A program made the translations under genes and the position numbers. Under the pieces are notes generated by a model. That model was given only the letters and a program-made list of their open reading frames with translations, was not told the origin of the DNA and made no database searches. Below, in pieces: positions 36,368 through 63,715 of a stretch of 64,000 bases of DNA. Numbering within the stretch: position 1 is the stretch's first letter; each line of letters opens with the position of its first letter. The DNA is from Okamejei kenojei (Eukaryota), in the NCBI GenBank assembly GCA_035221665.1, contig CM069154.1, positions 5,208,001-5,272,000 of the forward strand. Reading direction: 5' to 3'.

Positions 36368-36424
36368 CTTTGCATCAGTGTCCCCTTGTTCAACCTCTGG
36401 AAGAATCCTGCTTTTATCCAATTT
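36368..36424 (-). CDS. Candidate 57-nt internal exon of the receptor gene
   Basis: CTAG| acceptor and consensus AAG|GTAAGT donor; open in phase 0 (KLDKSRILPEVEQGDTDAK) and phase 2 (NWIKAGFFQRLNKGTLMQ); non-repetitive sequence. Confidence 0.4.
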
Positions 36425-39400
36425 CTAGTGTTTTATAAATTACAATATAGGAGGGTCCTTAGCCCTGATTTAATATCATTGTTCCAGCCTTCGTCACACC
36501 AAATGGCTGAGTTTGCAGAGTGTCATGATACCTATTTAACTCTTAGCTCGGATGTTATCAACTCAGTGGTTATTCTGCATGAAACACATTCACTGCAGGA
36601 CAGGGCAGGAAATGAATCTGATTCTTGTGGTTTGGATGCATACTGTCATTACTGACTAAGCCATCAGGGGGAGCTGTTTGCACATATTTAACTTGCTCCA
36701 CCTTTACTCTGCTTGTATAATTTTTAGCTTCCCACCATGTGTAGCCGTTATAATAATCCTGAAATCCCTGTAGGAAAGAATATTAATGACTTAATAATCC
36801 AGTAATTTGCAGCGCTACGAGAGTGACTTGTTCCTTGGGTTCTCATCAAAGTTATCATCTGACATTAATTCTGTCATGAAGGTGAACAGGTAGTCATTCA
36901 ATGCATTCCTTCTGTAAACCACCATCTTGCAGGTCCTTGTGTCTCTATTCATTAAATGAATTCAGGAAAGCTTCAAGGTGTTGACAATGAACATTCAAAA
37001 TAAGATCATTGCCTCCGGGCACCACACCCTGCATTTACTTGCATTGCATGGCACAAATCCACTAATAGTCTGCTGTTTAATGTTTCCATGTGTGGTACAG
37101 AGTTGTACAGCATGGAAACAGGCCCTTCGGCCCAACTCGTACATGCCGATCAAGATGCCCCATCAAGTTTTAAACTAACCAGTCAGTACAAAAGCAGCTT
37201 TAAATATCACTGTGTTACCAAAAAACAAGATGTGAAATGGTTTTGTTTGAGAATTTCAGTTTTGCGTTTCCCTCTCCCTCTAGTGCTACCCTTGTACGCC
37301 TTAATATATCGGCACAAAAATGACTACATTTCCGATCGTGAATCGTTATCAATCAGGCAAAGAAAACTAAAGCTTGCATCTGTTAATTCGGTGGGGAAAA
37401 ATAAGTTTGACAGGTCAGTCTTCGAAATCTGGTAATTTATATTTTGACAAAATCAAACTGGGACAAGATTGTGCCATATGGAGTCCGTGGCCTCTGAATC
37501 CTCGTGGCTTCTTATTCCACACACACTTGGTGCATACAACACGCACACAAAACATTTTCCAGATTATGTACCGTTTGTGATGGAGCTTTTTTTAAAAAAA
37601 AACACCAGCAAAATCTTGGTGCATTTTCAGAACCTTATGCGAGCACTAGATGGTGACCTCTCAATGCTGTGGGTTTTATGTCTTTGCGGTTGGATACCCA
37701 ATCGTGGGACCAGAAAGTACTTTCACTCCAGTTACATGAAAATATATATTTAAAAAAAAATAATAAAGAATTTAAAAATCATTATATAAACACAAGTTGC
37801 TTTTACTCAAAAATGCCTCTGCTGTTTTATGTGACGTGACAGAGATGAGACGAACTATGTCAAAACTAGGAACTGCAGGTACTGGTTTACCAAAAAAGAC
37901 GCAGAGTGCTGGAGTAATTCAGCAGGTTCATGCAAGGTCTGTGGATGACGTGGACAGGTGAGTTTTGGGTCAGGACTCTTCTTCAGACTACATTGGTTAA
38001 ATTATTCGCTTTTTTCCAACAATCTATCAAATAACCCCCTCGCCTATGTTCGCCTGTTACCGGCCCTGCTCTGTCCTACCCCTCTTTCCCAGCTTTCTTT
38101 CTTGTCCTCCCCGCAATCAGTCTGACCCAAAACGTCACCGATCCAAGTTCTCCAGAGATGTTGCCTGACCCGCTGAGTTACTTCAGCACTTTAAGTCTTG
38201 AGATGAACTCTCACTATTAAAGTATTGATATGGCATCATAAGCAAGAAATCTTCACCTGTCACGTTTTGTTCAGATGCTGTATCTTTACTAGTCCCACCT
38301 GCCTGCATTTGGCCCATACCCATCTAAACCTTGTTAGGGAAAGGTGCTTAGGAATTATAAATAGGATTTGCAGATTAAAAAAATCTGTTGCAAATGAGAT
38401 GTGAAATCAGCAGAATTGATTAAATGAAACTGTTGAATCAGAATGTGTTTTGCTGCAGGGCGAGTTAGCGAGATAAAGGCCTTTTGGCCCAAGTCGTCCA
38501 TTCCTAACTTTTTAAACCTTTTTTAATTTGTTTCCTTTGGTTCTTGATTTTCCCTCCTCTGGTGAACGACTCTGTGCATTCACCCTATCTATTCCCTTCA
38601 TGATTTCATACACCTTTATAAACACCCCTCAGCCTCCAGCAGTCAAAGGAACCTCTCCCTACAGCCCAGGCCCTCAAGTCCTGGCAGCATTCTCGTAAAT
38701 CTTCTCTGTGTTTCTTCCAGCTGAGTGACATCCTGTAGCAAGATTGACCAAAACTGAACACACTTCCAAATGTGGCCTCACCAATATATTGTACAACTGT
38801 AACAAAGACTGGAACAAAGAATAAAGTGATCGTGTCTGGAAGTTGGGGACCACTGAATGGAAGTGTTCTGAAAGCCCAGGCTTGCTTCGATCTGAAGAAG
38901 GTTCCAGAACGGTGCCTGTCCATACCCTCCACAGATGCTGCCCGAACCGCTGTATTCCTCCAGCATTTGTGGTTTTACTCAAAATTCCAGCATTGCATTT
39001 CCTTGTGTCTCACTTTCTTCGATCAGTGTTGTGTGACTCACATGACCTTGGTAAGAAAGAATGTGCTGGAGTTGGTGAGGCAGCATCTCTGCGGAACATG
39101 GATGGGCAATGATTTGGGTCGGGACCCTTCTGGGGGCTTGGAACATTGTGGTGTGGGCACAGGTACAAAGGTAAGGCCTCTGCTGAGGACTGAGTAGAGA
39201 AATCAGGGCAAGTTCAGCTGGGGAACAGGGGAGGGAGATGTGGGGGAGAAAGGGGAGGGGAAGTACGGGGTGTTAGCGGTTGCGTAAAATTGGAGAATTC
39301 AATGTTCATACCATTGGGTTGGAAGCTCCCCATTCAGAATATGAGCAGCATTGCTGCTGGAGATTACTTTCAAGAGTGCATTGTTTGAATTGTTAGTGCT

Positions 39401-42189
39401 TGAAATGTTTCCTCTATTTAATAATTCACTATTATAAAACTATTATCACCATATATAACCATTCTACCTCAATATGTTACCCATTCCTTCTCTCCTGAAG
39501 TGCTGCCTGACTCGCTGAGTAACTTCAGCATCTTGTGTCTATCTTTGATTTAAGCCAGCATCTTCAGTTCTTTCTTGCACACTTCCTGAATCCTATCCCT
39601 TTATCATGCACGCTCTTTGTATAACTTTAGCCTATTGTTCCCTGCTTCCTAGTTACAGTATTGGGGGACCATCAAGACGCTCAGTGACTAAACTTACCTG
39701 TTGTTTTGATTATATAAAATGTTTAAAATCATTGCTGTATAAAAACTGATCACTACAAGTGTCGGAAACAAATGTTGTGTGGGAGTGAAGATAGACACAA
39801 AAAGCCAAAGTAACTCAGCGGGTTAGGCGACATCTCTGGAGAAAAGGAATAGGTGACGTTTTGGGTCGAGACCCTTCTTCAGACTGATAGTCAGGGAGGG
39901 ATGAATTTTTTAGAATTTTAGAATAACGTTGATTGTCATTTGAACCTAAGTTCAAACAAAATTACGTTTCTGCAGTCATACAAACAAGAAAAAAAACCAA
40001 GACAAATAATTAACACAATTTACATAAACACCTCCTCACTGTGATGGAAGGCAAAGTCTTGTCTCTCCGCTGTCTCTCCTCTGTTCTTTATTCTTCTCCC
40101 GATGTTGAATGAGCAATATGAAAAGGTAGAACAAATGAATGAAATGAAAAGACAAATCAAAGCCACATTGATGATCAAGGAAACATGGAGCCCACAATGA
40201 TCCATTGTTGGCTGTGGAGAAGGTGATAAGGAGTGAGACAGTGAAACTCTGCAGGATGGCAGTTAACCAATATGACGACTAGGGTGGGCGCAGAGGGGAT
40301 GCAAGGGGTACCTGAAGTTGGAGAAATCAATATTCATACCGCTGGGTTGTAAGCTGCCCAAGTGATAGATGTTCCTCTAATTCGTGTGTGGCCTCACTTT
40401 GACAGTGGAGGAGGCCCAGGTCAGAATGGGAAGGGCAGTGAAAGTGTTTAGCAACAGGGAGTTCACATTGTGTGTTGTTGTACATCGTGTGGTTTGCTGC
40501 AGCCACAGTCCTTGAATCAGTAACTTCCTGTCTGCTGTAGATCTGCCCACATGCAAAACCAGCATCAATATAACTGAGCTGAGCACTAGTTTTAACCACA
40601 GATCTTTGGTTTTACCAAGAATTTAACCACCACCGCAGTCATATAAGGGCTGCTTTGTTCTGACGATAAGAATGATTGGTCAAAGCTGTTTAACAAAAAG
40701 TTAAGTGGCCAATGGATGAATTATTTAAAGTCTCAATTATCTTCATCTAATTTGGACATTAGCTCATTGATTTCTTCAGACTTCGAGACTTCTGTTACAT
40801 GTTTGATTATTTAAAAAAAGTTTTTTCCCTTTTCTTTAATGGAATGCTGAAGTTAATAATGAAATTAATCTCAAATAGATTTAAGATTAGCACAGTGGCG
40901 CAGCAGGAGAGCTGGTTTGATCCTGACCTCCGGTGCTGTCAGTGTGGAGTTTGCACGTTCTCTCTGGGTCAGTGTGAGTTTTTTTTTGTCTGGGTGCTCT
41001 GATTTCCTGATTTACAGAGGACAATTGGCCTCTGTAAATTGCACCTGGTGTATAGGGAGTGGATGAGAAAGTGGTTACGTTTTGTTCAAGAAAGAACTGC
41101 AGATGCTCAAAAAATCAAAGGTAGACAAAAATGCTGGAGGAACTCAGCGGGTGAGGCAGCATCTATGGAGCGAAGGAATAGGTGACGTTTCGGGTCGAGC
41201 CCCTTCTTCAGACTGTGTAACAGAACTAGTGTTAACGGGTGATTGATTGACGGTTGGCATGAACTGGATTTCATGCTTTATCTCCAGACTCCAAACAAAG
41301 CCCAATGTGCCGATATGGGGGAGAGAAATCCTCAATGATATTTAAGAGCCCTGTCCCAAATAACAATAACAAGTTCAGATTTGTTACCTTTGCTTTCTCT
41401 CTGATTTATCTTGGTGTGGGATTAACTGGTTTATGCCAGTCAATGTGCCAACTGCATGGATAATGTTTCCCCATCTCTGCTAGACGCCACACATGAAACA
41501 ACTTGCACAACTCTGAAATGGGGCCCTTCGATCTGTCACCTCCAAGCGAAACCTTGTACTCTGATCTAGTTTGCCTGCAGTAGGTCCATTTCCGTCAGTG
41601 CTTTGCATACTTAAGGGTCTAAATATAATACAGTAAACCTTTGTTGTAACGGGGAGAGTTGTGTCCGTTATAGCTGATTGTCTGCTACAACAGAGTGTGC
41701 TATGTGGCGTTTCATGTGTAGAGACCCAACAATAACATTTAGGCTGAGCAGGGATTGCACTGACAGAGGCTCCTTTTTTCAGCTGAAACATTAAAGCACG
41801 GTGGCGCAGCGGTAGAGTCGCTGCCTTACAGCTACAGCGCCAGAGACCCGGGTTCGATCCTGACTACGGGGTGCTGTCTGTACGGAGTTTACACCTTCTC
41901 CCCGTGACCCGCTTCGGTTTCCTCCCACACTCCTAAGACGTACAAGTTTGTTGGCTAATTGGCTTGGTATAAATGTAAATCATGAATAGTGTGTGTGTAG
42001 GATAGTGTTAGTGTGCGGGGATCGCTGGTCGGTGCGGACTCGGTGGGCCGAAGGGCCTGTTTCCGTGCTGTATCTCTAAACTAACCTAAACTAAGCAAAG
42101 GTCCAAGGGCGAGGAAGTGGCACGGGGTGGCGTCGGCAGCCAGGCCTGGCAGTGAAGTTCGGTCAGTCTCTCCGCTATAATCGGTGCGA

Positions 42190-42585
42190 TATAAAGAGAG
42201 GGGATCTTATTGAAACATATAAAATTCCTAAGGGATTGGACAGGCTAGATGCAGGAAAAATGTTTCCTGTGTCGGGGGAGTCCAGAACCAGGGGTCACAG
42301 TTTAAGAATAAGAGATAGGCCATTTAGGACTGAGATGAGGAAAATCTTTCTCACCCAGAGAGTTGTGAATCTGTGGAATTCTCTGCCACAGAATGTAGTG
42401 GAGGCCACTTAACTGGATGTATTCAAGAGAGAGTTAGATATTCTTAGGGCTAATGGAATCAAGGGATATGGGGAGAAAGCAGGAACGGGAACTGATTCTG
42501 GATGATCAGCCATGATCATATTGAATGATGGTGCTGGCTCGATGGGCCGAATGGCCTACTCCACCTATTTTCAATGTTTCTATAA
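42190..42585 (+). mobile_element. CR1/HER1-like 3' fragment
   Basis: RGDLIETYKI..RGHSLRI..RVVNLWNSLP followed by the shared 3' tail. Confidence 0.85.
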
Positions 42586-42816
42586 AGAGGTCTGTAAAAA
42601 CAAGGTGTTTCCTGTAATTGTATCGGACTCCACCACTCATTTATCATTCAAGTCAGGATGTGTGACTTGATGGGGAACTTGACCGTGTGGTCCATCAACC
42701 ACTTTCTTCAAATCAAATTAAAGAACACTTTTCAGGAACTTCATGAGTTCCCCAAGTTCAAAACCAAATGACACGTCAATTTAAAAAAAATATTCATTCA
42801 TAAGGTCATAAGTGCA

Positions 42817-45800
42817 TAAGTATGATATGGAGTGGAGCTAACTGAAATTAACATCTACGGAAGTTTACAAGAATCATTCCACCAGGGGGTGGGATACACC
42901 CACAGCATGCCTATATGCTGTGATTTGTGACGTTTTTAAATTTTTTTTTAGCTTGTCTATTACACTCTTTATCTATCTTTTTTAAGGCAATTTTTCCTGA
43001 GAGATACCTGCAGAGGCTTGGAATTGGGCTCACCACCCAGCAACTAAAAGGCTTATTTTAAATATTGTGTTACTCCATTTGAAACAAGGGAAACCATGTA
43101 AGCATTAATGCAAGACGATCCTTCTAGGAAAACTGGAGGAATCACCTTTTGTAGTTGGAATGTTAGGGGCGTTAATGAGCCAATTAAAAGGGATAAGGTC
43201 TTAGCCCATCTAAAATCTATTAATACTGATACAGGAGATGCATCTTAAGGATGGTGCTCATAACAGGCTGAAGGCTAATGGGATTGGTCAATTATATCAT
43301 TCTACTTTCCTCTCTAAAGCTAGAGGTACTGCAATCATAATTCGTAAAGGCACACCATTCAAACACAAAGCCACCATAGCCGATAAGGAGGGTAGGTACA
43401 TTATAGTATCTGGGGAGTTATATTCAACCCCACTTACTATGGTGAATATCTATGCCCCTAATTTTGACAACCCACAATTTTTTAATAAAATAATTAACAT
43501 AATCTCAGACTCCACCCAGCAAAATCTGATAATTGGAGGAGACTTCAATTGTGTACTGGACCCATATCTGGATAAATCTTCACAGCAAAGGAGATATAAT
43601 ACAAAATCCAGCGAACGTCCTAAACACTTACATAAAAATATAAACATAACCGACGTATGGAGGATTGTTAATCCATCCGGAAGAGAATATTATTTGTATT
43701 CAGCCGTTCACAAAACGTATAAACGTATTGATTATTTTCTGGTGGGCACAAAATTGATCCCTTTTACAATTAATCCCAAATATCATAATAATATTATTTC
43801 CGATCATTGGCCATTAACATTCTCCTTAAAATTAGAAGGAATGCATAACAAAAAAATGTTCTGGAGATTTAATCCACAAATATTAACTGATTCAGTTTGC
43901 TGTGAGTATCTGAAGCAAAAGATGGAACGATTTTATGAGACAAATGACACACCTGGTATTTCGGCCTCTTTATTATGGGAATCTTTTAAGGCCTTTATTA
44001 GAGGTTCTATTATCTCATATCAAGCGTATAAAAATAAAAAAAAACAGGATGGAACAATTGGAATTAGAAGAACAGATTATACAGCTTGATTTAGAAAATG
44101 CTACTGATCCATCTATTGTCAAACCTAATAAGATAGCGGTGTTAAAATTCAAGTTTAATCAAATTCTTTCCGCACGAATTATTAAGTTATTTGGTGATAA
44201 AACCGCATAAACTTCTGGCACATCAGCTGAGAAAAATGGAAAAAAGATCACACCATCCAAAAAATTAGATCAGAAAAAGGTGAGCTGCTTACACTCCCTA
44301 AAGATATTCATGAAAGATTTTTACAATTCTATCGTAATGTATACACATCTAAAACTTCATAAGAAACAATACAGATTAAAAACTTAGTTGACAATTGCAA
44401 CCTTCCATCACTCAATGCAGTGGAACGAGAAGAATTAGGAGCGCAGATTAAAGTAAAATATATTGAAGAGACCATTAAATCACTGAATAATCGCAAAACT
44501 CCAGGCCCAGATGGGTTCAGTAATGAATTATATAAAAAAATTCATGAATTAATTTCCCCTCGTTTACAAGCCCTTTATATACACGCATTTAAAGAACAGA
44601 CGTTACCACAAACTTTAGCCAAATCAGCTATTACATTGATACCCAAAAAAGACAAAGATCTTGGAAGAGCCAGGATCATATACAGCAATAGCTCTTTTAA
44701 ATGCAGACCAGAAAATATTAGCTAAAACCCTGGCAAGAAGACTAAGTAAGTAAATCAGTAAATTAATACACTCTGATCAAACTGGGTTTATACCTAAGGG
44801 ACATTCGTTCAATAACTTGAGATGCTTGTTTAATATAATGTACACACACAGAACGATAAACTTATCAATTATTTCTTTAGACGCAGAAAAAGCATTTGAC
44901 CAAGAAGGATGGGAATATCTCTTAATAAGAGATCTCTTAAAAGAGATATATAATATCTCTTCACAGTGTTGCAAAAATTCCAACTAGGAGAAAATTTTAT
45001 TTCATGGATAAAGTTGTTATATAACAATCCGACTGCCAGAATACTGACTAGTCAAACTCTGTCACCTAAATTTCAATTATCCAGGGGCAATAGGCAAGGG
45101 TGTGCTTTATCACCAATGTTATTTGCCCTTGCTACAGAACCCTTAACTGAAAGTATAAGAGTACATCCAAGCATTCATGGTTATAACACTAAATATACTA
45201 ATAATAAGATTTTGTTATGTGCAGACGATGTAATTTTATATATTACCAACTCCCAAGTCAGTATCCCAAATATACTAAACCTCATAGAACAATTTGGCTC
45301 CTTCTCAGGGTTTAGAATAAAACTGTAACAAAAGTGAAATTATGCCGATAATACCTCAAGACCCTTCACATCTCCTAAAATTTCCCTTTAGAATTGCTAC
45401 TGAAAATTTTAAATACCTTGGAGTCTACGTGACTAGAAAATACCCCTCTTTATTTCAAGCAAATTTTCCACCATTAATCACCAAATTAAATGTCCTTATT
45501 CAATTTTGGAAAACACTTCCAATTTCCCTTATAGGTAGAGTAAATGTCATAAAGATGATTTTCCTTCCACAACTCCTGTACCTATGTCAATCAATACTGA
45601 TTTACCTCCCTAAAAACTTAAAAAAAAAAACTTGACTGTGATTACAAACTTTATCTGGGATTATAAAACTCATAGAATTCGTAAACGACATTTATGTAAA
45701 CCTAAAGAAATCGGTGGACTGGCTCTCCCTAATTTTCTTCCATATTATTGGGCAACTAATATTAAAAATGTAATTTACTCGTTGGACGATACATGTAAAC

Positions 45801-47165
45801 TGGTTAAAAATGGAGAGGGAAGATTGTTTGCCTTTCAATATAGGCGCAATTCTTCTCTCTCCAATACATCTGAAGACCTCAATGTATGAGAAAAATCCGA
45901 TAATCCATAGTATCTTACGAATTTGGAAACAGTTGAAATCAACCCTCAATTTGAGAAATTTATCTCTTCTTACCAATCGCCAATAATCCCTCTTTTAAAA
46001 AACCGTCTACTTTAGACAAGGCATTTGCTCAATGGGAAAGCCAAGGAATTAAAAATCTGGGAAATCTTTATGAGAAGGGGACCTTCCTTTCGTTTCAAGA
46101 ATTACAGGTGAAATATCATTTGAAAGATATCGTCAGATATTTTCAAATATGAGACTACGTGAAAATATACACCCAAGATTGCCACTCTGTGGGCCCAGAT
46201 ATATTAGATGAATGCATGAACAGAAAGGCGGATACAGATAAGTTAATATCCTATTTCTACAATACCCTTTTTTAATGTACATATCCCATCGTTGGAAATA
46301 ATTAGGCGAGCATGGGAAGATGAATTAGGTTTAACAATTTCTAAGGATAGTTGGGAGGAAAGTCTTTTATATATACATTACTGTTCTCTTAATGTTAGGC
46401 ACCCCCTAATAAAATTTAACATACTGAATAGACTCTATTATTCAAAGTCTAAAATGAACAAGATCTTCCCAAATGTCTCTCCTATCTGTGATAAATGTCT
46501 CCTCCAAGATGCGGCTGTAACCCATTCTTTTGTTTCCTTCACAAAATGACAAAACTTCTGGAGGGAATTTTTGATATCTTTTCCGAAATACTTAAAACTA
46601 AATTAGATCCCGATACAAAACTGATCACACTAGGTATGTCAGAGGCCTGTTCTGAGCTAACGATATTTCAAAGACGTTCCCTTAACAATGGCCTGATGAC
46701 GGCAAAAATATTAATACTCAAATTCTGGAAACAGACAACAGTCCCTACAGTGAAGATGTGGATCACAGACATGTCCGAGACACTACATTTGGAAAACATT
46801 AGGCTTGTCTTGGCGGAAAAAACAGATCAATCTCTTAAGACATGGACAGCCTTTACCGAATTCTTAGAACAATAGTATGGTGCAAAACAAATTTAAATTT
46901 AAATCCGATGCTGGGTTGGATGAGGCGGGCGGCGGGGACGAGCGGCAGATTTTCTTTTGTTCTTCTTCAATCAACCTTTTCAATTTCTACTTTTTTTCTT
47001 GTTTTCTCTTTCTTTTCTTTTTCATTTTTTCATAATTTTAGGTGATAAGGTTAAAATTGAAGCTGTACAATAATTGTCTAATTTTAGATGCCAAATGTTT
47101 TATCTCTGTACAATTGCTTCTAATAAAAATAAAATAAATACATTGAAAATAAAAACAAAACAAAG
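42817..47165 (+). mobile_element. L1-clade LINE (full but frameshifted ORF2, no ORF1) flanked by ~210-bp direct repeats
   Basis: Endonuclease from about 43108 (SWNVRG, GGDFN, RIDY, SDH); RT (QGCALSP, CADD); AATAAA and A-rich tail; repeats at 42603-42816 and 47168-47373. Confidence 0.92.
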
Positions 47166-47838
47166 CGAGGTGTATCCTGTAATTGTATCGGACTCCACCA
47201 CTCATTTATCATTCAAGTCAGGATGTGTGACTCGATTGGGAACTTGGTGACCCTGTGGTCCACCAACCACTTTCTTCAAATCAAATTTTCAGGAACTTAA
47301 TGCGTTTCCCCAAATTCAAAATCAAAAGATACGTCAATTTTTTTAAATATTCATTCATAAGGTCATAAGTGCAAGGAGTAGAATTAGGCCATTCGGCCCA
47401 TCAAGTCTACTCCGCCATTCAATAATGGATGATCTATCTCACCTTCCTAACCCTATTCTCCTGCCTTCTCTCCATAACCTCTGACACCTGAACCTATTCT
47501 GCAGAATCAGAGTGAACATTAACAGTCGAAGAGCAGAGAACTCAGATGGTTAATTGGAAAGGAAGGATGAAAGGAGTTTGGTTAACTTTCGATCAAGGTC
47601 TGGTAAAAAGGTAAGTTGGAAAAAAAAATTAGCACATTAATCACAATAGTCTTTTTTCTAAGAGTTCTCGGACAATTTATTTGTTGCTTTGCTGGTACAT
47701 ATGACAATTAAACACACAGGAGGTTAAGGGGTGATTTTATAGAGGTGTTTAAAATCATGAGGTGAATTGATGGGATGAATACACGGAGTCTTTTGCTCAG
47801 AGTGGAGGAATCGAGAACCAGCGGGCATGGGTTCAAGG

Positions 47839-48206
47839 CAAGGGTTCCCAACCTGGGGTAAATTTCGCCTACCCAGGGAGTAAATATGTTGATTCTGGAT
47901 TTATTTATACATATTTATTCTCATTGATTGATTGTGTTTGGTTCTGGTATACCGGTATCTGTTCATCATCAGTTGTTCATAAATAAGTGAAATAACATTG
48001 GTATGTGCTATTAAAGTTGCCAGCAGGGTGGAAGATTGCAACCTTCACGTGGTCCGCCCTGTTTCGACGAATGCAATCAACCTGGCGTGCACAATCAAAT
48101 AAGATCAAATAGAACAAGTAGTCCTACAACTTTAGGATGTGCGCGCCATACGCAAGAATAAGAAAGTTGCCGGGGTAAACGGGATGAAAAAGGTTGGGAA
48201 CCCCTG
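47839..48206. mobile_element. Non-autonomous hAT-like MITE inside a CR1 fragment (about 47715-48355), itself containing a short retroposon (48026-48162)
   Basis: TIRs CAAGGGTTCCCAACCT and AGGTTGGGAACCCCTG; 8-bp TSD GTT(C/T)AAGG at 47831-47838 and 48207-48214; inner element flanked by AAAGTTGCC. Confidence 0.8.
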
Positions 48207-48361
48207 GTTTAAGGTGAGAGGGGAAAGATTTAAAAGGTACCCGAGTGGCAACTTTCTCACTCAAGGGGTGGTGGTTTCTATCGAACGAGCTGCCAGAGGA
48301 TGTAGTTGAGGCAGTGACTAAACCAACATTTAAAAGACACTTGGACAGGTACATCCCAAAC

Positions 48362-48534
48362 ATCAGCCATGTTTGCCCGATGTTTCTGAGTAATGTATTA
48401 AATAAATAAGTTGCTTAAATTGTTGTGAGGTAAATGAAACTTTCACTACTTGTAATTTACTTAACTTTATTTAAGCTTTAAGCCACTTATTTCTTTAATA
48501 CATTACTCAGAAACGTCTGGCAAACATGGCTGAT
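48362..48534. repeat. Inverted repeat with 58-bp arms and a 57-bp spacer
   Basis: 48362-48419 is the reverse complement of 48477-48534 with about 4 mismatches. Confidence 0.9.
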
Positions 48535-49413
48535 TCCGCAGGCCTTTCCCGCCCGAAATACTTTGCACATGCACACACTCCGGGAATGTCCTGCGCATGC
48601 GCCATACTCTAGAAGAACCCCGCACATGCGCCCACTTCATTCTCCCCTCCTATTTATAAGTTGAGACGGTCAGGAGGTTTAATACATCTTGATGACCGTC
48701 GCAGAACTGGAGCTTCCTGAGGTGGGTTGTTAAAATAAACATATTATTCCAATTCATATCAATTACAACACAACATAACTTAATCTCAAAGAACTGCAGA
48801 TGCTGCAAATTGCCCTTTAGTCTGTAAGGACTAGATGCGAAAATGGGATAACATAAATCTAGTGTGAATGGATGATGGATGGTTGGCATGGACTAGATGG
48901 GCCAAAGAGCCTGTTTCCATGTTGCATCTTTCAATTCAATTAATATGTATATTAACAAGAGGTTTAGAAAGTCTGTCTCAGTGTAATAAACATAAGAGTG
49001 AAATATTTGGTAATAAATTCCACAATCAGAGATTAGTAAGAAGGTAAAACTCAGGCGAATATCAGGACACGGTTTGGGGAAAGCTTTGAAGATACGAGGT
49101 TGGAGGAGATGAGAAGAATTAGAAGGCAGTGGAGGCCAAGTCAATGGATATTTTTAAGGCAGAGATTGAAAGATTCTTGATTAGTACGTGTGTAAGGGGT
49201 TATGGGGAGAAGGCAGGAGAATGGGGTTGAGAGGGAAAGAGAGATCGGCCATGATTGAATGACGGAGTAGACTTGATGGGCCGAATGTCCTAATTCTGCT
49301 CCAACAACTTACGAGAATGGAGAGAGATACGTGAAATATAATATCAGTAAAGACTGTTTGTATGCTGAATATCTACATAAATGTTGAGACAGACATTTTA
49401 TGTCCATTGATAC

Positions 49414-49727
49414 CTTTAAACATCGCGGTTTTAGCCTGTGAGATCCCAATGTCGACTGGTGTCCTGGCCCCACACCAATATTCCCCCACATCTCCTTCAT
49501 CAGTGTTCCTGATCGTGATAGCAAAGTTGTTGAATTTGTTCCCACTGATTGATAATTTGCTGCTGTTGTAGTGATGAGGTGTCGCTATGATGCGGCAACT
49601 ATTCACAGAGACGACTTTACACAAGATTTCTCATATTCTTCAAATTGCACCTTGTACCGGCAATGTATAGTGGTGGCATTGCCCATTACGCCCTTGACTG
49701 TGGTACGGTTTAGTATCCGTGAATCTG
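49414..49727 (-). pseudogene. Ig V-set exon, CD300/pIgR-like, with an apparent 1-nt deletion at about 49626 (real or assembly error)
   Basis: 314 nt between a NAGNAG acceptor and AAAG|GTATC; TVKGVMGNATTIHCRYKVQFEEYEK/(x)LCKVVSVNSCRII..FAITIRNTDEGDVGEYWCG; both the B-F and the C-C' cysteine pairs are present. Confidence 0.8.
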
Positions 49728-50317
49728 CTGTAATGGAAACAAAATGAGGGTATGAGAGATCAGAGATGCTGACTGTTGACTTTAGTCGGGAAGAGCCAAG
49801 GATCCACAAACCTTAGTTTAGAGATACAGCCCACCGAGTCTGCACCGACCAGCGATCCCCGCACATTAACACTTTCCTACATACACTAGGGATGAGTTAT
49901 AATTTTACTCAAAGCCTACAAACCTTGGAGTGTGGGAGGAAACCGGAGCACCCGGGAAAAACCCACGAAGGTCACAGGGACAACGTACAAACTCCGTACA
50001 GACGGCACCCGTGGTCAGGATCGAACCCGGGTCTCTGGGGCTGTGAGGCAGCAACTCTTCCGCTGTGCCACGGGGTGGCTCCCTCACTAATGGGATGCTG
50101 AAGATGGAGAGTTAACGTGAGGCCATGCGCAAATTGGAGGAACAGCACTTCATATTTTGCTTGGTTCGCTTACAACCCAGCAGTATGAATGTTGAATTCT
50201 CCAACTTTAAGTAACTTCTACTAACACTCCACTCCCCTACCCCCTTGCCCCCTTCCACCCTAGTTCTACCAACTATTCCCCAGCTCCATTCTTTCAGTCT
50301 GAGGAATTGCCCCGACC

Positions 50318-50750
50318 CGGAGCGGCTGGGCTTGTACACTCTGAAGTTTAGAAGGATGAGAGGGGATCTTATTGAAACATATAAGATTATTACGGGTTTG
50401 GACACGCTAGAGGCAGGAAACATGTTCCTGACGTTGGGGGAATCCAGAACCAGCGGTCACAGTTTATGAATAAGGGGTAAGCCATTTAGAACGGAGATGA
50501 GGAAACACTTTTTCACACAGAGAGTTGTGAGTGTGGAATTTTCTGCCTCAGAGGGCGGTGGAGGTCGGTTTTCTGGATACTTTCAAGAAACAGCTAGGTA
50601 GGGCTCCTAAAGATAGCAGAGTCAGGGGATATGGGGAGAAGGCAAGAATGGGGTACTGATTGGGGATGATCAGCCATGATCACATTGAATGGCGGTGCTG
50701 GCTTGAAGGGCCGAATGGCCTACCCCTGCACCTATTGTCTATCGTCTATT
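50318..50750 (+). mobile_element. CR1/HER1-like 3' fragment inserted in a Penelope-derived element
   Basis: LGLYTLKFRRMRGDLIETYKI.. plus ctattgt tail; the host element resumes at GACCCAAAATGTCAC. Confidence 0.8.
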
Positions 50751-51070
50751 GACCCAAAATGTCACGTATTCAATTTCTCCCGGGAAGCTGCCTGTCCCGC
50801 TGAGTTACTCCAGCATTTTGTGTCTATCTTCGGTGCACACCAGCATCCTTCCAACACACCTTTGTAAGTTAAACGCGCTTAACAATCGGTAGACACAAGG
50901 AACTGCAGATGCTGGAATCTGCTGGAAAGCGTAGAAAGTGCTGGAGTAACTCAGCAGGACGGGCAGCACCTCTCCATAACAATCAGCATGCTCATTATGG
51001 CACAGCAGTCCAAGTGTATATTATCAGTGAAGCATATTATCAGTCTTAAAATCTTCGGAAAACCTCTTAC

Positions 51071-51382
51071 CTGTGAATACATCCAGCACGACAATATCTG
51101 AAACATGGATTCCATTTGTCTGAATAGTTCCACACCAGTATGTTCCTGCATCATTCTTCTGAAGTTGACTTGTTACAAAAACAGACCCATTGAGTCTTCT
51201 CATTGATATCCTTCCACTACGGTTCTCATCTTGCTGAGTGTTGACTATTATTTGACACTCTTTTCGAGAATAGGCTTTGCACCAGCTGACAGGTCCTGTT
51301 TTCTGAGCGTTTGGACATTCTATAGTCACTGTTTCTCCCTCGCCAGCTCTTATCGCCATCAGGTGAAGCTGTGCTAGGGAAC
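51071..51382 (-). CDS. Ig V-set exon, CD300/pIgR/TREM-like (intact, 312 nt)
   Basis: CCCAACAG|GT acceptor, ACAG|GTAAGA donor, phase 1; AGEGETVTIECP..SWCKAYSRKECQIIV..GRISM..LQKNDAGTYWCG..VVLDVFT, with the family C-C' disulfide. Confidence 0.9.
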
Positions 51383-54300
51383 CTGTTGGGTGAAATTTAA
51401 TGCTGGAGATTTTTACAGAATCACATCAAAATATTCCCATAACCACCCCCCCCCTCCCCCCGCCAGACATAATTTCATGTTCATAAGTTATAGGAGAACA
51501 TTTAGGCCATTCGGTTCATCGTCTGTCCCGCCATTCAATCATGGCTGATCTATTTCTCCCTCTCAACCCAATTCTCCTGCCTTCTCCCCATAACCCCTGA
51601 CCCCTTTACGAACCAAGAATCTGTGAATCTCCGCCTTAAAAATACCCAATGACTTGGATTCCACAGCCATCTGTGGCAATGAATTCCACAGATTCCCCAT
51701 CCTCTAAAGAAATTCATCCACAACACCTTTGTTCAGGTATGTCCTTTGTAACAGGTACAGGTACAGGACAGTAGCGCAGGGGTAGAGATGCTGCCTTACA
51801 GCGCCAGAGACCCGCGTACGTGTGCAGTCTGTACGGTATTTGTACGTTCTCCCTCTGACCTGGTTTTCTCCGGGTGCTCCGGTTTCCTCCCATACTCCAA
51901 AGACGTGCAGGTTTGTAGGTTAATTGGCTTCGGTAAAAATCGTTCCTAGTGTATAGGATGGAACTAATGTGTGGGGTCAGCTTCGACTCGGTGGGTCGAA
52001 GCGCCTGTTTCCACGCTGTATCTCCAAACTAAACTAAAACGTCCTGTTATTTTGAGGCTGTGCACTCTGGTCCTAGACTCTCCCACCAGTGGAAAACATC
52101 CTCTCCACATTCACTCTATCTCCAGGCCTTTCACTATTCGTTAAGTTTCAATGTCCCCCTCATCCTAAAATGGGAGGTGGGAGGAAACTGGAGCATCCGG
52201 AAGAAACCCATATGTGACGGGGAGAAACTCCACAAAGACAGCATCCGAGGAAGGATCGTACTGTAAAAATCTTCTGTGCTGCATCTTCACTTTAAAAGCA
52301 TAGAACAGTACAGCACAAGAACAGGCCATTTGGCCCACAATCACCATGCTGAACATGATGCTATGACCAACCCCTATCTGCCTGCTCATCATCCATATCT
52401 TCCCATTCCCTGCATATCCATCTGCCCCTACCAAGGACTCTTAAAAACTGATTGACATAGTGGGGCATTCTCCCCATCCCCCTCCCCCCACCGCAGTCAG
52501 TCTGAAGAAGGGTCCCGGCCCAAAATATCACCTATCCATGTTCTCTAGAGATGCTGCCTGACCCGCTGAGTTACTCCAGCACTTTGTATCTTTTTTCTCT
52601 TACATGCATGTGCCAGTCCGAAAGTCTCTTAAATCCTCTGTTAAATCCCAGACTCTTGTCACAGTTCGTTTTAACTCTTGCTAAAATGTAAAGTTAATTG
52701 GTTCCTTTCTAGGCTCCTGGTCCTTTGGCTGAACAGCAGCGTATCATCACTTATTTAAATAACAAGAGCTAATCTTCACGTTAACATATAACTGCGCTAT
52801 GGTTCCATGACCATGTTGATGGGGCAGAATTAGGCTGTTCGGGCCATCATGTCTACTCTGCCATTCAATCATGGCTGATCTATCTCTCCCTCCTAATCCC
52901 ATTCTCCTGCCTTCTCCCAATAAATGCTGGAACCCGTATTAATCCGGAATCTGTCCATCTTAGCTTTCAGAAACAGCAGAAAGTAAAACATCGTGGTTCC
53001 AGAGAGAGAGAGGTCCTTGTTTGCCAATGAAGCGGTCTCATTCACTTTGGGGGATTAACTGTGGTTGGCAGAGGTTTGGACAGAAGACAAGCTGAACTGA
53101 AGCAGGTTTCCAGTGAGGGTATCCACAACTTGCGTGGTCATATCCCAATCCTGCCATCCTTAAAGATCAGTGTTGGGAGATGCACTTTTAAAATTAATAC
53201 TTTGTAATCCAATGTAGAATAAGGAACATTGACAAACAACCTGTTTTCACAACTTGCTGAACTTACAGCGCCAGAGACGTGGGTTCAATTGTGACTATGG
53301 GTGCTGTCTGTACGGGGTTTGTTCGTTCTCCCCATGACCGTGTGATTTTCTCCGGGTTGTTCCGGTTTCCTCGCACTATCCAAAGACGTGTGGATTTTGT
53401 AGGTTATCTGGCTTCGCTAAGTTGTAGATTGTCCCTAGTGTGTCGGATAGTCCTAGCGTTACGGGGTTGTCTCCAGAGAAGCTGTCTGACCCGCTGAGTT
53501 ACTCCGGCTTTTTTGTGTCTACCTTCGGTTTAAAACCGGCATCTGCAGTTTCTTTCCTAAACAGTTGAAATGATTCCTTCATGGCTGGGAAGAGTGCTGA
53601 TAAGATTTATCAGGATTTTTACCAGGACTCGAAGTTCTGAGCTACAAGGAGGATGTGTCTCACCCTGGCCACTCCCTCTTCTCCCCTCTCTCATCAGGCA
53701 AGAGGTACAGAAGTTTGAAAACGCACACCTGCGGATTCACGGAGTTTCTTCCTTCCTTCATGTTATCAATGAAACGGAACCTTCTTATTACTAACTAGAG
53801 AGTGATCCTGACATACCCATCTACCTCATTGGAGACCATTGCACCATCTTTAATTGGACTTTACTGGACTAACTTGCACTAAACTTACGGTATTTCCCTT
53901 TATCCTGTATCTGTACACTGTGGGTGGCTTGATTGTAATCACGTATTGTCCTTTAGCTGACTGGATGGCATGCCAGAAAAAAGTGTTTCATTGTGCCTTG
54001 GTCCATGTGATAAACTAAATGATAAACTAAACTAAATTTGGATAATCTAGGACTTTATATTCCTTGGAGCACAGGAGGCTGAGGGGTGATCTTATAGAGG
54101 TGTATACAATCATGAGGAGGAATTGATAGGGTGAGTTCAGAGTCTTTTACCCAGAGTAAAAGGGGAATCAAAATCCAGACAAGTTTAAATTGAGGGGGGA
54201 GGGATTTAATAGGAACCTAGGGGCAAGCTTTTTCACTCATGTGGATGTGAATGTGGTGGGTATATGGAACGAGCTGCCAAAGGAGGTAGCTAAGCGAGCT

Positions 54301-55216
54301 ACAATAACAAGACAATTGGGACAGGTACATGGATAGGAATGGTTGCTGTGGTTTACATGCTGCAAGTCCTCTCCTATCTCAATGTAGACAGACTTGGAAT
54401 ATCTTAAGGTATCATAATATCTTGGGGTGCAGTGGTAGAGTTGCTGCCTTACAGCACCAGACACCCGGGTTCGATCCTAACTACGGGGTGCTTGGTCTAT
54501 ATGGAGTTTTGTACGTCCTCCCCGTAACCTGCGTGGGTTTTCTTCAGGATCTCCAGTTTCCTCCCACACTCCAAAGACGTGCAGGTTTGTAGGCTAATGG
54601 ACTTGGTGTAATTGCAAATTGTCCCTGATGTGTAGGATGGTGTTAGTGTGCAGGAATCGCTGGTCGCCGCAGACCTGGTGGGCCGAAGGGGTTGGTTCAA
54701 TAGACAATAGACAATAGACAATAGGTACAGGAGTAGGCCATTCGGCCCTTTGAGCCAGCACCGCCGTTCAATGGCTGATCATCCCCAATCAGTACCCCGT
54801 TCCTGCCTTCTCCCCATATCCCCTGACTCCGCCATCGTTAAGATCCCTATCTCGCTCTCTCTTGAAAGTATCCAGAGAACCGGCCCTCCCACCGTCACTG
54901 TTCCTCTAAACTAAAACCAAACTTAGAAAAGCCAGTGTCAGCTGAGTGGCCTTTCAGTAATAAGGAGAGTACTGTGCCTTGAATTTCAATGGGCAGTTCT
55001 GGTTTTGGTTTTGCAGTTTTGAGCAATTTGTTATTGGTATGAGTAAAAATGGTGATTGTGCAATGAATGCAATCATTTACTGCATGTCAGCGGTGCTGGG
55101 AAAGTGTCAAGCATAGTGTGACCAGGAACGTGAGCTCCAATCGCAGAACTTTACATTGCGAAGATTGTAAGCATGATTGACTCAGGGTAAGAGAGTCAAA
55201 GGTTATGGGGAACCAC

Positions 55217-56720
55217 TCGCGAATGTGAAAACGAGGAATTATAGACCAGTTAGTCTTACATTGGTAGTGGGGTAGATGCTGGAATTGATTATTAAGGATG
55301 TTATAGCAGCGCATTTGGAACGCAGTGACAGGATCGGTCAAAGTCAGCATGGATTTATGAAGGGGAAATCATGCTTGACTAATCTTTTGGAATTTTTTGA
55401 GGATGTAACAGGTAGAATGGATAAGGAGGAGCCAGTGGATGATGAGTATCTGGACTTTCAAAAAGCCTTTGACAAGGTCCCACACAAGAGATTAGCGTGC
55501 AAAATTAGAGCACATAGTATTGGGCGTAGGGCATTGACATGGATAGAGAACTGGCTGGCAGACAGGAAGCAAAGGGTAGGAATTAACGGGTCTTTTTCAG
55601 AATGGCAGGCAGTGACTAGTGGGGTGCCACAAGGCTCGGTGCTGAGACCCCAGTTATTTACAATATATATTATCAATTTAGATGAGGGAATTAAATGTAA
55701 ACATTACTAAGTTTGCGGATGACACAAAGCTGGGTGGCAGTGTGAGCTGCAAGGAGGATGCTAAGAGGCTGCAGGGTGACTTGGATCGGTTTAGTGAGTG
55801 GGCAGAGGCATGGCAGATGGAGTATAATGTGGATAAATGTGAGGTTATCCACTTTGGTGGCAAGAACAGGAAGGCAGATTATTATCTGAATGGTGTCAGA
55901 TTAGGAGAAGGGGAGGAGCAACAAGACCCTGGGTGTGCTTGTACATCAGTCACTGAAAGTTAAGCATGCAGGTACAGCAGGCAGTGAAGGAAAGCCAATC
56001 ATTGGCCATCATTGCAAGAGGATTTGGGTTTTGGAGCCAAGGAAGTTCTACTGCAGTTTGTACAGGGCCCTGGTGAGACCACACCTGGAGTATTGTGTCC
56101 AGTTTCGGTCTTCCTAATTTGAAAAAGTACATTATTGCTATTGAGTGAGTGCAGTGTGATGTTCACCAGGTTAATCCCAGGATGACAGGGACTGACATAT
56201 GATGAAAGAAATGGTTCAACTGGGCTTGTATTTGCTGGAAAATTAGAAGGATGAGTGGGGATCTTATTAGAAAACATTAAACATTCTTGGAGGATTGGAC
56301 AGGTTAGATGCAGGAAAAATGTTTCTCGATGTTTGGGGAGTCCAGAAACCAGGGGTTATTGTTTAAAAATAAGGAGTATGGGCATTTTAGACTGAGATGA
56401 GGAAAAATCTTTTCACCCAGAGAGTTATGAATCTGTGGAATTCTCTGCCACCAAAGGCAGTGGAGGCCAATTCACTGCATTGTATTCAAGAGAGAGTTAG
56501 ATTTAGCTCACTTAGGGTTAAGGGAATCAGGTGATATGGGAAATAGCTGGAACGGGATACTGATATCACTGAACCTTAATTGGTGCATGTGGACAGTAAA
56601 TGTGAACTTGAATTTGATTTTTGGATGATCAGCCATGATCATATTGAATGGCGGTGCTGGCTCAAAGGGCCGAATGGCCTACTCCTGCACCTATTTTCTA
56701 TGTTTGATGTTTTCTATGTA
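55217..56720 (+). mobile_element. 5'-truncated CR1/HER1-like LINE
   Basis: [40 protein letters not shown]; ttctatgt tail; many indels. Confidence 0.92.
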
Positions 56721-58977
56721 CTGTTCAGTACAAGTATCACTATACATAAAGCACTTAGGACATATCTTAGATAAGCATCTCAGATACAGTACAAGTGTAT
56801 AGCACTGGTGCATTGAGACAGTGTGCAGAGTTTAGCTCCCATACCTGCAGGAAAACCACAGTGAGGGCATTTTGTGACAGTGCTGCACTGATAGTGAAGC
56901 ATTTTAAAAAAATTTTTGAAAACTTGAAAAACTGTTAAAATTACAACTAAATGTGTCCTGTTCTCCTCTGCTAGACGAACAAGAGCAATGAGAATTGCCA
57001 GCAGAAATGTGGTGTGTTGTTTAAATATTTAAAGTTGTTTGGATGGTCAGTAATCAATAATTGCATTCAATCAACCCCCCACCCCTCCTCACCTGTATCC
57101 ACCCATCACTCAACCACATTTTGTGCCCCCCCCACTCCCACGCCTCTTCCCAGTTTAATAATCAGAGGCTTTTTCACGAGGGTCAGCACGGTGACGCAGC
57201 GGTAGAGTTGCTGCTTGGAGGACATTGCTATTGAAACAACTTCTCTTTTCCACATGAGTAGTGAAGCTCGATTGTAGACCGATGGTCCTTATGATGCAGC
57301 TGACTTTGCTTCAAGCTGTTGATTTTTCCCATTTCTCATCTAATAATGTAATGCTTTAGTTTGTGTTTTAGTTTAGAAATACAGTGGTGGAAAACGGGTC
57401 CTTCGGCCCGCTGAGTCCACATCGACCAGCGATCGCCCACGGCACTAGTTCTATCCTACACACTACGGGCAATTTACAGAAGCCAATTAACCTGCACATC
57501 TTTGGAATGGGAGGAAGGCCAGAGAAAGCCCACGCGATCACAGGGAAAACGTACAAACTCCACACGGACAGAACCCGTGGTCAGGATCGTAGCTGGGTCT
57601 TCTGCGCCTGCAGCATGAGGGCAGCAAAATCTACCGCTGTGGCACTTTGCTTTAGACTTTAGAGAGATAGAGGCCCTTTCGGCCCACTGAGGCTTTTAGA
57701 TAGTATGGTATGGTACGGTTATTTGTCATGTAACGAGGTACAGTGAAATTCATTTTTGTTACATTTCAGTACAAGTATAAGATAGGCACATGGACATGCA
57801 GGGGGTGGAGGGATAGTGGACTATGTGCAGGCAGATGAGATCAGTTTAACTTTGGCCTCATGTTTTTTGGCCCATGGACAATGTGGGCCGAAGGGCCTGT
57901 TCCTGTGCTGTTCTGTGTTCTACGTCCATCCGCAAAACCACCTTCGACAAAGTCAGTAGGATCTTGGGCTCACCAGGTATTCAGAAGACAAGTGTACTTT
58001 ATTGTATGCTTACAACATCTCCCATGTCATCTGTAGATGTTTCACTACAAAACATTTGAACATATTTACACAATCTCTCACTTGCGATTCCTGTTCTTCA
58101 TACACATATTTGCAAGCCACTGCGCTTCGCGTAAACATTCACAAAATACAGGGAAATTAAAGCAATGGAAATTAAAGCAATTAAAGCAGTGGAAAGCACG
58201 TGGTCCTGTTTCCGCACTGTCTGACTCTGTGACTTAGTAACAGAACTGTTTTTCTTGGTAAACTGGATGGTGGAAGGTCAACCAGTGAGTTTTAACAACA
58301 AGCCGACAGTTTTGTGTCCAACAGTACATATACATATTTATTTTTTAATCACAAATTAATAGCAGTTCAAATTCCACAGCTGTTCTAATTGAGGCAAAAG
58401 AAAAATGGTGGAAAATCTCAACATGTTCGGCGGGCATTTGTGGAAGCGGAACGGAGTGATGAAATCCCTGGAATAACCTGCTACTGACGGTAGGGATTAT
58501 TGAGGCTGGATAATTAGGGGTATTTAAAGAAGGAGTTTGAAGGGGCAGGGAGTCGAGGGCATTGAGGAAACTGAGGGACACAGGAGAGGAGATGAGGTTG
58601 GAGGCAGATCAGCCATTATTGTGTTGAATGGTGGATATTGGCTTGAAGGGCTGAATGGCTATTTCTGCTCTTATTTTCCCTACGTTGAATACTAACTCAA
58701 CAAGAGACATACAGCACGGACCAGGCCATTTGGCCCAATTTGTCCTTGCCAACCATCTCTTGATATTGGGGGTCCCTACCACTTACCCGCATTTGGCCCA
58801 TATCCCTCTAAACCTTTCCTATCCATGTAATCTATCCAAATGTCTTTTTAAATGTTGTTAATATTCCTGCCTCAAACTACCTCCTCTAGCAGCTTGTTCT
58901 TACACCCACCACTCTGAATGAAAAGGTTGAACCTCGGGTTCCTACTAAAAATCTTTACCCTCCACCTTAAGGTCACG

Positions 58978-60379
58978 AAACTATCATGTATCTCTGTTTT
59001 TCTATCTCCATCAGGTGCTGCATGACCTGCTGAGTGTTTTTTTCATTTTCATTTTCGGCACGGATATTGTGGGCCGAAGGCCTGTTGTACTTATCTATGT
59101 TCTATCTTTTATCAGATTCCCCAAATCTGCAGTTATCTGATGACCATGCACTGTTCTTGGTGAGATCTGAACGCAAATGTCTGGATTTGTGGGTAAGCAA
59201 AGACAATTTTACCAGACTGTCCGTTTCAATGCATTCTTGGTGTTCTTCCGGTAGAATTAAATTATTATCTGTGGAAGAATTGTGGCGTAAACAAAACTTT
59301 GCGGCCCTTGGCTCTTGGCTTGTCCCTTGTGTGTTCAGATCCTGGAAGGTTCATGTAAGTTATTCTCCTTGCTAAGCTTGAGGGAAACGCGTTGTCACGG
59401 TGGTATAAATGACAGGGGTTGCCTATTGGAGTCAAGTGAGAAAACATAATTACTTTAAAGATAGTGTCAGAAGGTAGACAAAAATGCTGGAAGAAAAAAA
59501 CTCAGCGTGTGAGGCAGCATCATGGAGGCGGAAGGTTTAGGTGACGGTTGTCGGGTCGAGGGACCCTTTCAGTGAGTACTGGGGAAGTGGGCGGGGGGTT
59601 ACAGAGATAAATTGTTAGGGTTTTACGACCCGGAAACGTCAACTTTTCCTTCGCTCCATTAGTGCTGCCTCACCGCTGTGTTTTTCTCCAGTCATTTTTG
59701 TATAACTTCGATTTTTTCCAGCATGCATGATGTTCTCTTCTTAAAGATAGTGTCAGGAGTGTGTTATTGTCATACTTGTCTCAAGTTGTGTTGTGGAGGA
59801 GGAGGAGAGGGACACAATACACACACAACACACACGTAAAAGTGGCAAAAATGAATAAAAAACCTATACCCCCAAGGGATAATTAGTTGGACCATATTTG
59901 GGGGTGATTGTGTTTAATAGCCTCATGGCTGTAGGGGATGATAGCTGTTCCTGAAACCTGGGGACGTTCCAGTTTTGTGGATGACGATGGCAGTGGTTGA
60001 AAGGAGGGAGCGCGGCCAGGGTTTGCTAGGGGGTCTCGATGGCTGCTGTCTGCCTTTTTTTGAGAAACAGGCATACAAAAATTCAGAGGTTAACACTCTG
60101 GGAGAAAAAGGAATAGTTGGGCATTTTGGGTCGAGAACCTTACGTTCAGACCTAAACATATATTAACTTAGTTTAGTTTTAGAGATGCTGATTGGAAACA
60201 GGCCCCTTGGCCACCAAGTCACGTGACCATCAGTCCCAACCCATTCACCAGTTGTTTCCATGTTATCCGCTTTCGCATCCTACCACACTGGGGGGCAATT
60301 TACAGACAGCAATTAATCTTCAAACTGACCGTCATTGGAATTGTGGGAGCAAAACCGGATCACCCGGGAGCAAACCGGC
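58978..60379. repeat. Left arm of an inverted duplication; reverse complement of about 62555-64000
   Basis: Unique and repeat segments are colinear in reverse complement, with dense small indels. Confidence 0.9.
59258..59422 (-). CDS. Terminal cytoplasmic exon with ITIM-type motifs (indel-corrupted)
   Basis: Acceptor CTCCAATAG|GCA; reads ATPVIYTTVTT, then across indels TYMNL and VYATIL. Confidence 0.6.
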
Positions 60380-60879
60380 NNNNNNNNNNNNNNNNNNNNN
60401 NNNNNNNNNNNNNNNNNNNNNNNNNNNNNNNNNNNNNNNNNNNNNNNNNNNNNNNNNNNNNNNNNNNNNNNNNNNNNNNNNNNNNNNNNNNNNNNNNNNN
60501 NNNNNNNNNNNNNNNNNNNNNNNNNNNNNNNNNNNNNNNNNNNNNNNNNNNNNNNNNNNNNNNNNNNNNNNNNNNNNNNNNNNNNNNNNNNNNNNNNNNN
60601 NNNNNNNNNNNNNNNNNNNNNNNNNNNNNNNNNNNNNNNNNNNNNNNNNNNNNNNNNNNNNNNNNNNNNNNNNNNNNNNNNNNNNNNNNNNNNNNNNNNN
60701 NNNNNNNNNNNNNNNNNNNNNNNNNNNNNNNNNNNNNNNNNNNNNNNNNNNNNNNNNNNNNNNNNNNNNNNNNNNNNNNNNNNNNNNNNNNNNNNNNNNN
60801 NNNNNNNNNNNNNNNNNNNNNNNNNNNNNNNNNNNNNNNNNNNNNNNNNNNNNNNNNNNNNNNNNNNNNNNNNNNNNNN
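60380..60879. other. Scaffolding gap (500 N)
   Basis: Run of exactly 500 N. Confidence 1.
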
Positions 60880-62056: not shown

Positions 62057-62142
62057 GGCAGGCTCGAAATGGTACAGAGAAGAAATTATGAATCAGGAAA
62101 ATCCAGCAGAGAAGAGTTTCACATCAAATCAATTCACTCACG
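62057..62142 (+). CDS. Candidate cytoplasmic exon upstream of the plus-strand ITIM exon copy
   Basis: Strong acceptor TTATATTTTTCAG|G and donor ACG|GTAAGA in non-repetitive sequence; frame uncertain because of read errors. Confidence 0.35.
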
Positions 62143-63549: not shown

Positions 63550-63715
63550 GCAACCCCTGTTCCATTTATTACCACCGTGACAACGACGTTCCCCCAGCTA
63601 GCACGGAGAATACTTACATGAACCTTCAGGATCTGAACACACAAGGACAAACCAATAGGCAAGGTGCCGCAGAAGTTGGTGTACGCAACAATTCTCACTG
63701 ATAATAAATTAATTT
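63550..63715 (+). CDS. Inverted second copy of the ITIM-bearing exon (indel-corrupted)
   Basis: ORF track shows PASTENTYMNLQDLNTQGQT..QGAAEV and, in the next frame, LVYATIL. Confidence 0.55.

Follow-up and report, generated by a model that had tools for sequence, protein, structure and literature searches.

Modular domain immune-type receptors (MDIR) were reportedly described from the clearnose skate by Cannon et al. in 2006. In excerpts of PMC3031540, skate MDIR form a multigene family whose members, activating or inhibitory, have Ig domains like those of CD300, TREM and the polymeric immunoglobulin receptor (pIgR), and the CD300 V domain is given a second cysteine pair and a WC motif in strand C (PMC3031540). 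The protein accessions ABC86796, ABC86797 and ABC86799 for members of the MDIR1-5 set are from the same paper. CD300f, also named CD300LF, CLM-1 or IREM-1, uses both SHP-1/2 and Grb2 according to excerpts of PMC7247439. The motif YxN is a Grb2 motif in the parts of PMC4810170 that concern the catfish LITR, and teleosts have a pIgR-like multigene family (extracts of PMC9321927). Our literature search, which covered few subscription papers, found no description of the receptor gene or tail considered here, and MDIR were mentioned only in PMC3031540.

The window analysed is a 64,000-nucleotide stretch of scaffold C24 of the skate Okamejei kenojei, in which a sequence-only reading had noticed two inverted, damaged copies of what looked like one inhibitory receptor tail. 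Six-frame translations confirmed both copies at the places given, in opposite orientation and neither of them open. We hold with high confidence that both stretches represent the last exon of a CD300/pIgR-like membrane receptor of the skate, a protein that likely damps the activation of immune cells, and that the two copies were most likely broken by contig-end read errors. The receptor gene is part of a large CD300/pIgR-like receptor cluster, of the kind called MDIR in skates (MDIR being known here by description), and is an ordinary further skate gene of a known receptor kind, already annotated in related skates.

By the description of MDIR, the likeness consists of a multigene family in which the number of CD300/pIgR-like Ig domains varies (1–3 IgV exons per gene here), and of ITIM-bearing and tyrosine-free members standing side by side in the skate cluster. 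No MDIR-named protein was among the 30 and 18 hits of our searches, nor among 17 proteins looked up by name. Also comparable are proteins that RefSeq names "polymeric immunoglobulin receptor-like" (XP_055510917.1 and XP_055510916.1 from Leucoraja erinacea, XP_078276598.1 from Rhinoraja longicauda), which agree in part order and share the tail (identity 96% and 80%, respectively), but possess 3–4 IgV domains instead of the 1–2 in the tail-bearing genes here; the name is an automatic one. pIgR, a single-copy transporter binding polymeric Ig, resembles the skate receptor as its best whole-sequence PDB match, in its tandem V domains and in that presumed PIGR-region markers are found on the same scaffold. 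However, these markers are 3.3–4.1 Mb from the cluster edge, and the skate genes form a multigene cluster with an ITIM tail.

CD300f shares with the skate receptor a related V domain, an uncharged membrane helix, and ITIMs combined with a Grb2 site (excerpts of PMC7247439), whereas the skate tail is without a YxxM/PI3K site and has only three tyrosines. YxxM was absent from all 14 tail windows listed, while the Grb2-type YxN is present as YMN, its Y and N invariant in 8/8 aligned sequences. In contrast to CD300, the skate V domain has no second disulfide (0/23 segments), the cluster is not on the contigs that carry Tweety or EBP50 markers, and the number of V domains is variable. The receptor is therefore not CD300f, as it has neither YxxM nor the second V disulfide and lies among other neighbours. 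What the sequence-only reading called a CD300f-type tail stands as a likeness of layout and falls as a statement of membership.

Intact relatives of the broken exon were found in the same genome. A DNA search with the tail exon returned 7 matches from 7 candidates. All of them lie within the interval 5.12–5.72 Mb of C24, and they comprise the two window copies and five others. Four of these five (L002–L005) are open, each a 51-residue exon ending in a stop, and the fifth (L006) is frameshifted and lies 11 kb from another gap. The corresponding protein search gave 6 matches from 9 candidates, 4 of them stop-free and near full length. With four open copies on the same scaffold, merging the two damaged ones, held earlier to be the only way to recover the tail, is not needed; the merged peptide itself agrees with the intact exon at 40 of its 42 specified residues, and the three tyrosine motifs share one frame in the clean copies, as Y6, Y21 and Y43 of 51.

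The nearest clean copy, g5124, is an intact six-exon gene in which all introns are GT-AG and which encodes an open 301-aa protein, composed of signal, IgV domain, Ser/Thr stalk, uncharged membrane helix and a 77-residue tail. It has the anatomy of a type I membrane receptor, with an Ig ectodomain and an uncharged helix. Its IgV exon matches Pfam V-set (E 3e-14), and the best solved relatives of this domain are pIgR and then CD300f (E 1.3e-16) among 62 PDB sequences matched, while the tail matched 0 Pfam families. There are exactly three tyrosines in the tail, all in the last exon, within VIYTTV, TYMNL and VVYATI, and VIYTTV and VVYATI are present in the 4 open copies. Both fit the ITIM consensus, although VVYATI, which ends in Ile, fits only its broader form. 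The clean copies thus bear out the prediction of two ITIM-consensus motifs around a Grb2-type YxN on an Ig receptor.

This layout is conserved well beyond the skate. Across 8 aligned sequences, from rays and one shark, Y6, Y21, N23, E40, V41 and Y43 do not vary. The ITIM-YxN-ITIM pattern occurs in 18 of 180 fetched proteins, all of which had been picked as relatives, and lies no more than 5 residues from the protein end in 15 of these 18. Rays and three sharks are among its bearers, as are bichir, paddlefish and a turtle "CMRF35-like molecule 1", whose tyrosine spacings are 14 and 21, compared with 15 and 22 in the skate tail. The last three tyrosines of CD300f resemble the skate tail in order and spacing as well. 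When the tail was shuffled, two ITIM-like motifs with a separate YxN arose in 117 of 100,000 cases, and a chance motif is rejected by these shuffles together with the conserved tyrosines.

When the tail alone was used as query, one protein among 14 candidates was retrieved, XP_055510917.1 of L. erinacea, over 98% of the exon. It has the part order of g5124 with three V domains, and the g5124 model is 77% identical to it over 287 aa; tail identity in Pristis is 51%, compared with the 80% in Rhinoraja. The expectation that automated annotation would probably miss the tail holds only in part. XP_055510917.1 is a RefSeq model and carries the tail, so automated annotation caught it in this relative, whereas two relatives' models with the same membrane exon lack it: Amblyraja XP_032898105.1 has a tyrosine-free end that matches the downstream acceptor discussed below, and the Rhinoraja model P0004 runs on into other sequence.

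Table 1. Features of the window discussed in the text (window positions; a clean copy is an open copy of the tail exon elsewhere on C24).
Feature	Position	Strand	Remarks
Last coding exon (ITIM-YxN-ITIM tail), copy 1	59258..59422	-	10 insertion and 2 deletion events relative to clean copy
Last coding exon, copy 2	63550..63712	+	6 insertion events relative to clean copy
53-nt cytoplasmic exon preceding tail exon, garbled copy	62057..62142	+	AG acceptor and GT donor still recognisable
500-N scaffold gap between both copies	60380..60879	.	Upstream (membrane and Ig) sides of both copies face the gap
Mirror of ~44 kb, left arm	16470..60376		Right arm runs from window 62560 to ~34 kb past window end
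Candidate second acceptor, ~235-240 nt past tail-exon start	59130..59205 (~59180)	-	Prediction only; also ~63795 (+) in copy 2
Sister gene, same family	7413..25604	-	Signal exon, three IgV exons (one frameshifted), stalk, Arg/Trp-bearing membrane exon, short tyrosine-free end
Two Ig exons, next cluster gene (other type)	49430..51359	-	~8 kb downstream of copy 1

In the assembly, both window copies (Table 1) stand apart from any membrane or Ig exon, and the gap between them went unmentioned in the sequence-only reading. Upstream of the minus copy, 957 nt remain before its contig ends, and the plus copy lies 2670 nt inside the next contig; in the clean paralogue g5124 the membrane exon is 5001 nt upstream of the tail exon. 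The inverted pair within the window (58976–60376 vs 63998–62560) shows 81% identity with 138 gap openings, and the mirror on the scaffold sets C24:5224470–5268376 against 5305809–5270560.

We consider it slightly likelier that the two window copies are one locus assembled twice than that they are a true inverted duplicate pair. In the latter case, to which we give a substantial but lesser probability, the receptor reading would hold, but the copies would be two separate, real genes on the arms of a genuine inverted segmental duplication, and the centre common to both, with the membrane and Ig exons, would have dropped out of the assembly. Two genes would fit the divergence of the arms, about 9–14 substitutions per kb in the better bins compared with 12–23 between clean paralogues, as well as the mirrored next gene, which has three IgV exons on one arm and one on the other; a real head-to-head switch of gene direction also exists inside one contig near C24:5.655 Mb. 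However, both arms terminate at the same gap, the window copies agree with each other at 17/18 diagnostic sites and are both nearest to g5124, three short plus-strand contigs lie between two minus-strand contigs, and other gap ends in the cluster overlap sequence elsewhere, in blocks of 30 kb and 12 kb, as false duplications do (C24:5330680–5360380 vs 5603924–5574354 and C24:5377701–5389965 vs 5505719–5518130). The agreement at diagnostic sites and the contig-end overlaps therefore point to two haplotypes, or to false duplication in which a short contig was given the wrong orientation. Given overlaps of 12–30 kb at contig ends, several of the annotated cluster copies may be redundant. The minus copy was also considered as the missing end of a gene without a tail that opens the last contig (from C24:5574354), and this joining was rejected because that contig end fits g5361 at 16/17 diagnostic sites, whereas the window copies fit g5124.

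As to function, analogy with CD300a/f and the teleost LITR suggests that, once ligand is bound, the tail would be phosphorylated by a Src-family kinase. VIYTTV and VVYATI would then engage both SH2 domains of SHP-1 or SHP-2, and nearby activating signals would be quenched. YMN could dock Grb2 for a second, context-dependent output, and the tyrosine-free sister genes with an Arg/Trp-bearing membrane exon are, by their sequence, candidate activating or decoy partners of the receptor. By this analogy, for which excerpts of PMC6258681 and PMC4415817 on CD300a/f also served as a basis, the receptor likely works like CD300f, through SHP-1/2 and perhaps Grb2.

It is improbable, in our judgement, that the tail serves mainly as an activating or trafficking signal (through Grb2 docking, or YxxPhi endocytosis as in an antibody transporter) and not as a phosphatase dock. 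The V domain is indeed closest to pIgR by sequence, RefSeq calls the relatives pIgR-like, and YxN is kept as strictly as the ITIM tyrosines. But a paired-receptor design would account for the pair of ITIM-consensus sites, whose −2 residue is hydrophobic, as well as for the uncharged helix and the sister genes lacking tyrosines, and the turtle CMRF35-like molecule 1 has the same end.

Relative to g5124, the minus exon carries 10 insertion events, 2 deletion events and 5 substitutions; in the plus exon there are 6 insertion events, 0 deletions and 2 substitutions, and no indel event is common to the two. Insertions repeat a neighbouring base in 8/9 cases in the minus copy and 5/6 in the plus copy, as counted in a slightly different alignment within the exact limits of the sequence-only reading, hence 9 minus-copy insertions. 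Compared with the nearest clean copy, the contig of the minus copy falls from 88 indels per kb at the gap to 4–7 per kb at 7–12 kb, the clean paralogues g5124 and g5403 differing by 0–16 indels per kb. The last kb of contig contains 39–89 gap openings at 8/8 ends of the four gaps in a 654-kb region, and 10 kb from the gap there are 1–21 in 6/7 measured ends and 77 per kb in one; the contig of the plus copy stays indel-rich well past its end. An indel pattern that fades from contig ends is typical of thin long-read consensus. Because the indels have no common position, repeat bases, fade from the gap and show the same excess at all 8 ends, the garbling of both window copies is most likely due to contig-end read errors, as judged from this indel pattern, and "error-laden" was a fitting description of them. 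That the copies are instead genuine pseudogene fragments, decayed after duplication, is very improbable, for although other broken exons are present in the cluster, indels here outnumber substitutions within the exon (12 vs 5; 6 vs 2), are biased toward insertions, strike introns as well as exons, vary in number with the distance to the gap and are found again at 8/8 gap ends.

Public sequencing runs were examined for splicing of the tail exon, with 4 of 23 listed runs aligned to the stretch containing the tail, 53-nt and membrane exons. X15 and X16, which belong to one study, each yielded one contig that spans 600–963, so that its last base falls just before the exon edge (964). Both contigs carry 17 other letters and 10 gaps relative to g5124, exactly the difference between g5723 and g5124, while g5361 differs from g5124 by 6 letters and 0 gaps and g5403 by 28 and 28. 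The depths of the X15 and X16 contigs, 6.67 and 6.72, recur within the 53-nt exon, at place 2147. Another 88 letters, equal to 53 + 35, belong to the X15 record, the depth of the membrane-exon bin implying about 32 nt. By comparison, the DNA run X1 continues past both exon edges; the X17 match spans 757–920 and is free of gaps. Deduced from contig depths and ends, in runs whose RNA status is guessed (X16 was flagged as "probably DNA"), this suggests that the tail exon of paralogue g5723 is spliced to the 53-nt exon. The same public contigs suggest that it is probably spliced also to the membrane exon, and RefSeq models join the tail exon with the membrane exon. The g5723 copy, matched by these contigs, has a frameshifted IgV in the assembly.

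A strong candidate acceptor, with a pyrimidine run and CAG, lies 235 nt past the start of the tail exon in clean copies and is present in 6/7 copies. Its predicted use would yield a tyrosine-free end like that of XP_032898105.1. In g5723 a 10-nt deletion removes it.

The cluster extends over at least 0.8 Mb of C24, from about 5.10 Mb to beyond 5.94 Mb, and contains many signal-IgV-stalk genes with 1–3 V exons each, compared with 1–5 in relatives. Within 654 kb there are five sets of membrane helix and ITIM tail, one of them frameshifted, and 10 matches to the second membrane exon, the one bearing Arg/Trp; in relatives, a tyrosine-free end comes after this exon. In the window, Arg/Trp membrane exons are located at 9591–9686 and 35868–35968 (minus strand) and short tyrosine-free ends at 7413–7481 and 27364–27432 (minus strand); the 35868/27364 pair has no Ig exon of the same type upstream in the window. 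An Ig exon of the type of the next gene follows 6/7 tail copies. This next gene, with two Ig exons, is a second inhibitory-type gene whose own end has the three-tyrosine layout IAYSTV, IYSNL and VEYSAL; its tails are found at C24:5418555 and 5739941 (plus strand), and a third such end at C24:5798637. Much of the window otherwise consists of decayed LINE-type frames (9885–11641, 21070–24614, 43214–46875, 55276–56355) and many SINE copies, the LINE and SINE family labels being ones that we assume.

In the IgV type of the cluster, none of 23 genomic segments (window 14244–16911; C24:5.13–5.71 Mb) has a Cys following the Trp. Both cysteines persist in relatives from stingray, devil ray and zebra shark, and more distant V exons at C24:5.77–5.94 Mb retain the second cysteine pair. 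The loop at the place of the lost second cysteine pair is the most variable part of the IgV.

On its left, the cluster has as nearest neighbours an AMP deaminase gene and an AdoHcyase-family gene (L070–L074, L080–L082; C24:4.97–5.09 Mb). In human, AMPD2 and AHCYL1, which may correspond to them, are 1p13 genes located close to TMIGD3, a CD300-like gene. The flank scan covered 150 of 1209 candidate frames, 148 of them in the left flank, and gave 11 Pfam matches, namely 6 to AMP deaminase, 4 to AdoHcyase and 1 to ALKBH8_N, the last probably a retroelement remnant; up to 5.95 Mb no right-hand end of the cluster was met. Matches to SARG, PFKFB and Pre-PUA, which presumably mark the PIGR neighbourhood (pIgR lying, as we assume, beside IL10/FCAMR/C1orf116), are at C24:0.98–1.84 Mb, 3.3–4.1 Mb from the cluster edge. 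A genome search for the IL10 family gave 0 matches, its control being likewise silent. Tweety and EBP50, for TTYH2 and NHERF1, are presumed to mark the CD300 neighbourhood; Tweety matches were on C22 and C23, EBP50_C matches on C22, and none on C24, these being two markers only with paralogues unseparated. The flanks that we take to be those of TREM, NFYA and a FOXP-type gene, were rejected as bracketing the cluster, with NFYA at C24:7.66 Mb and FOXP-type matches at C24:42.9 Mb.

A broader evolutionary scenario can be offered as a doubtful one. It holds that the ITIM-YxN-ITIM last exon is an ancestral jawed-vertebrate, CD300f-like tail kept from sharks to turtles, that the skate cluster lies on a chromosome with PIGR- and TREM-region markers and not at the CD300 locus, that its V domains lost the second disulfide, and that the acceptor 235 nt downstream would let most copies switch to a tyrosine-free decoy end, this acceptor being deleted in one expressed copy.

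For this assembly, gene counts and "pseudogenes" of the cluster are unreliable, since it is spread over five contigs with four gaps and overlapping, indel-rich ends. The positions of the cluster and its markers are mapping evidence that bears on how the CD300, pIgR and TREM clusters arose. The finding itself is of modest value, adding a concrete predicted inhibitory receptor of the skate with a deeply conserved three-tyrosine end.
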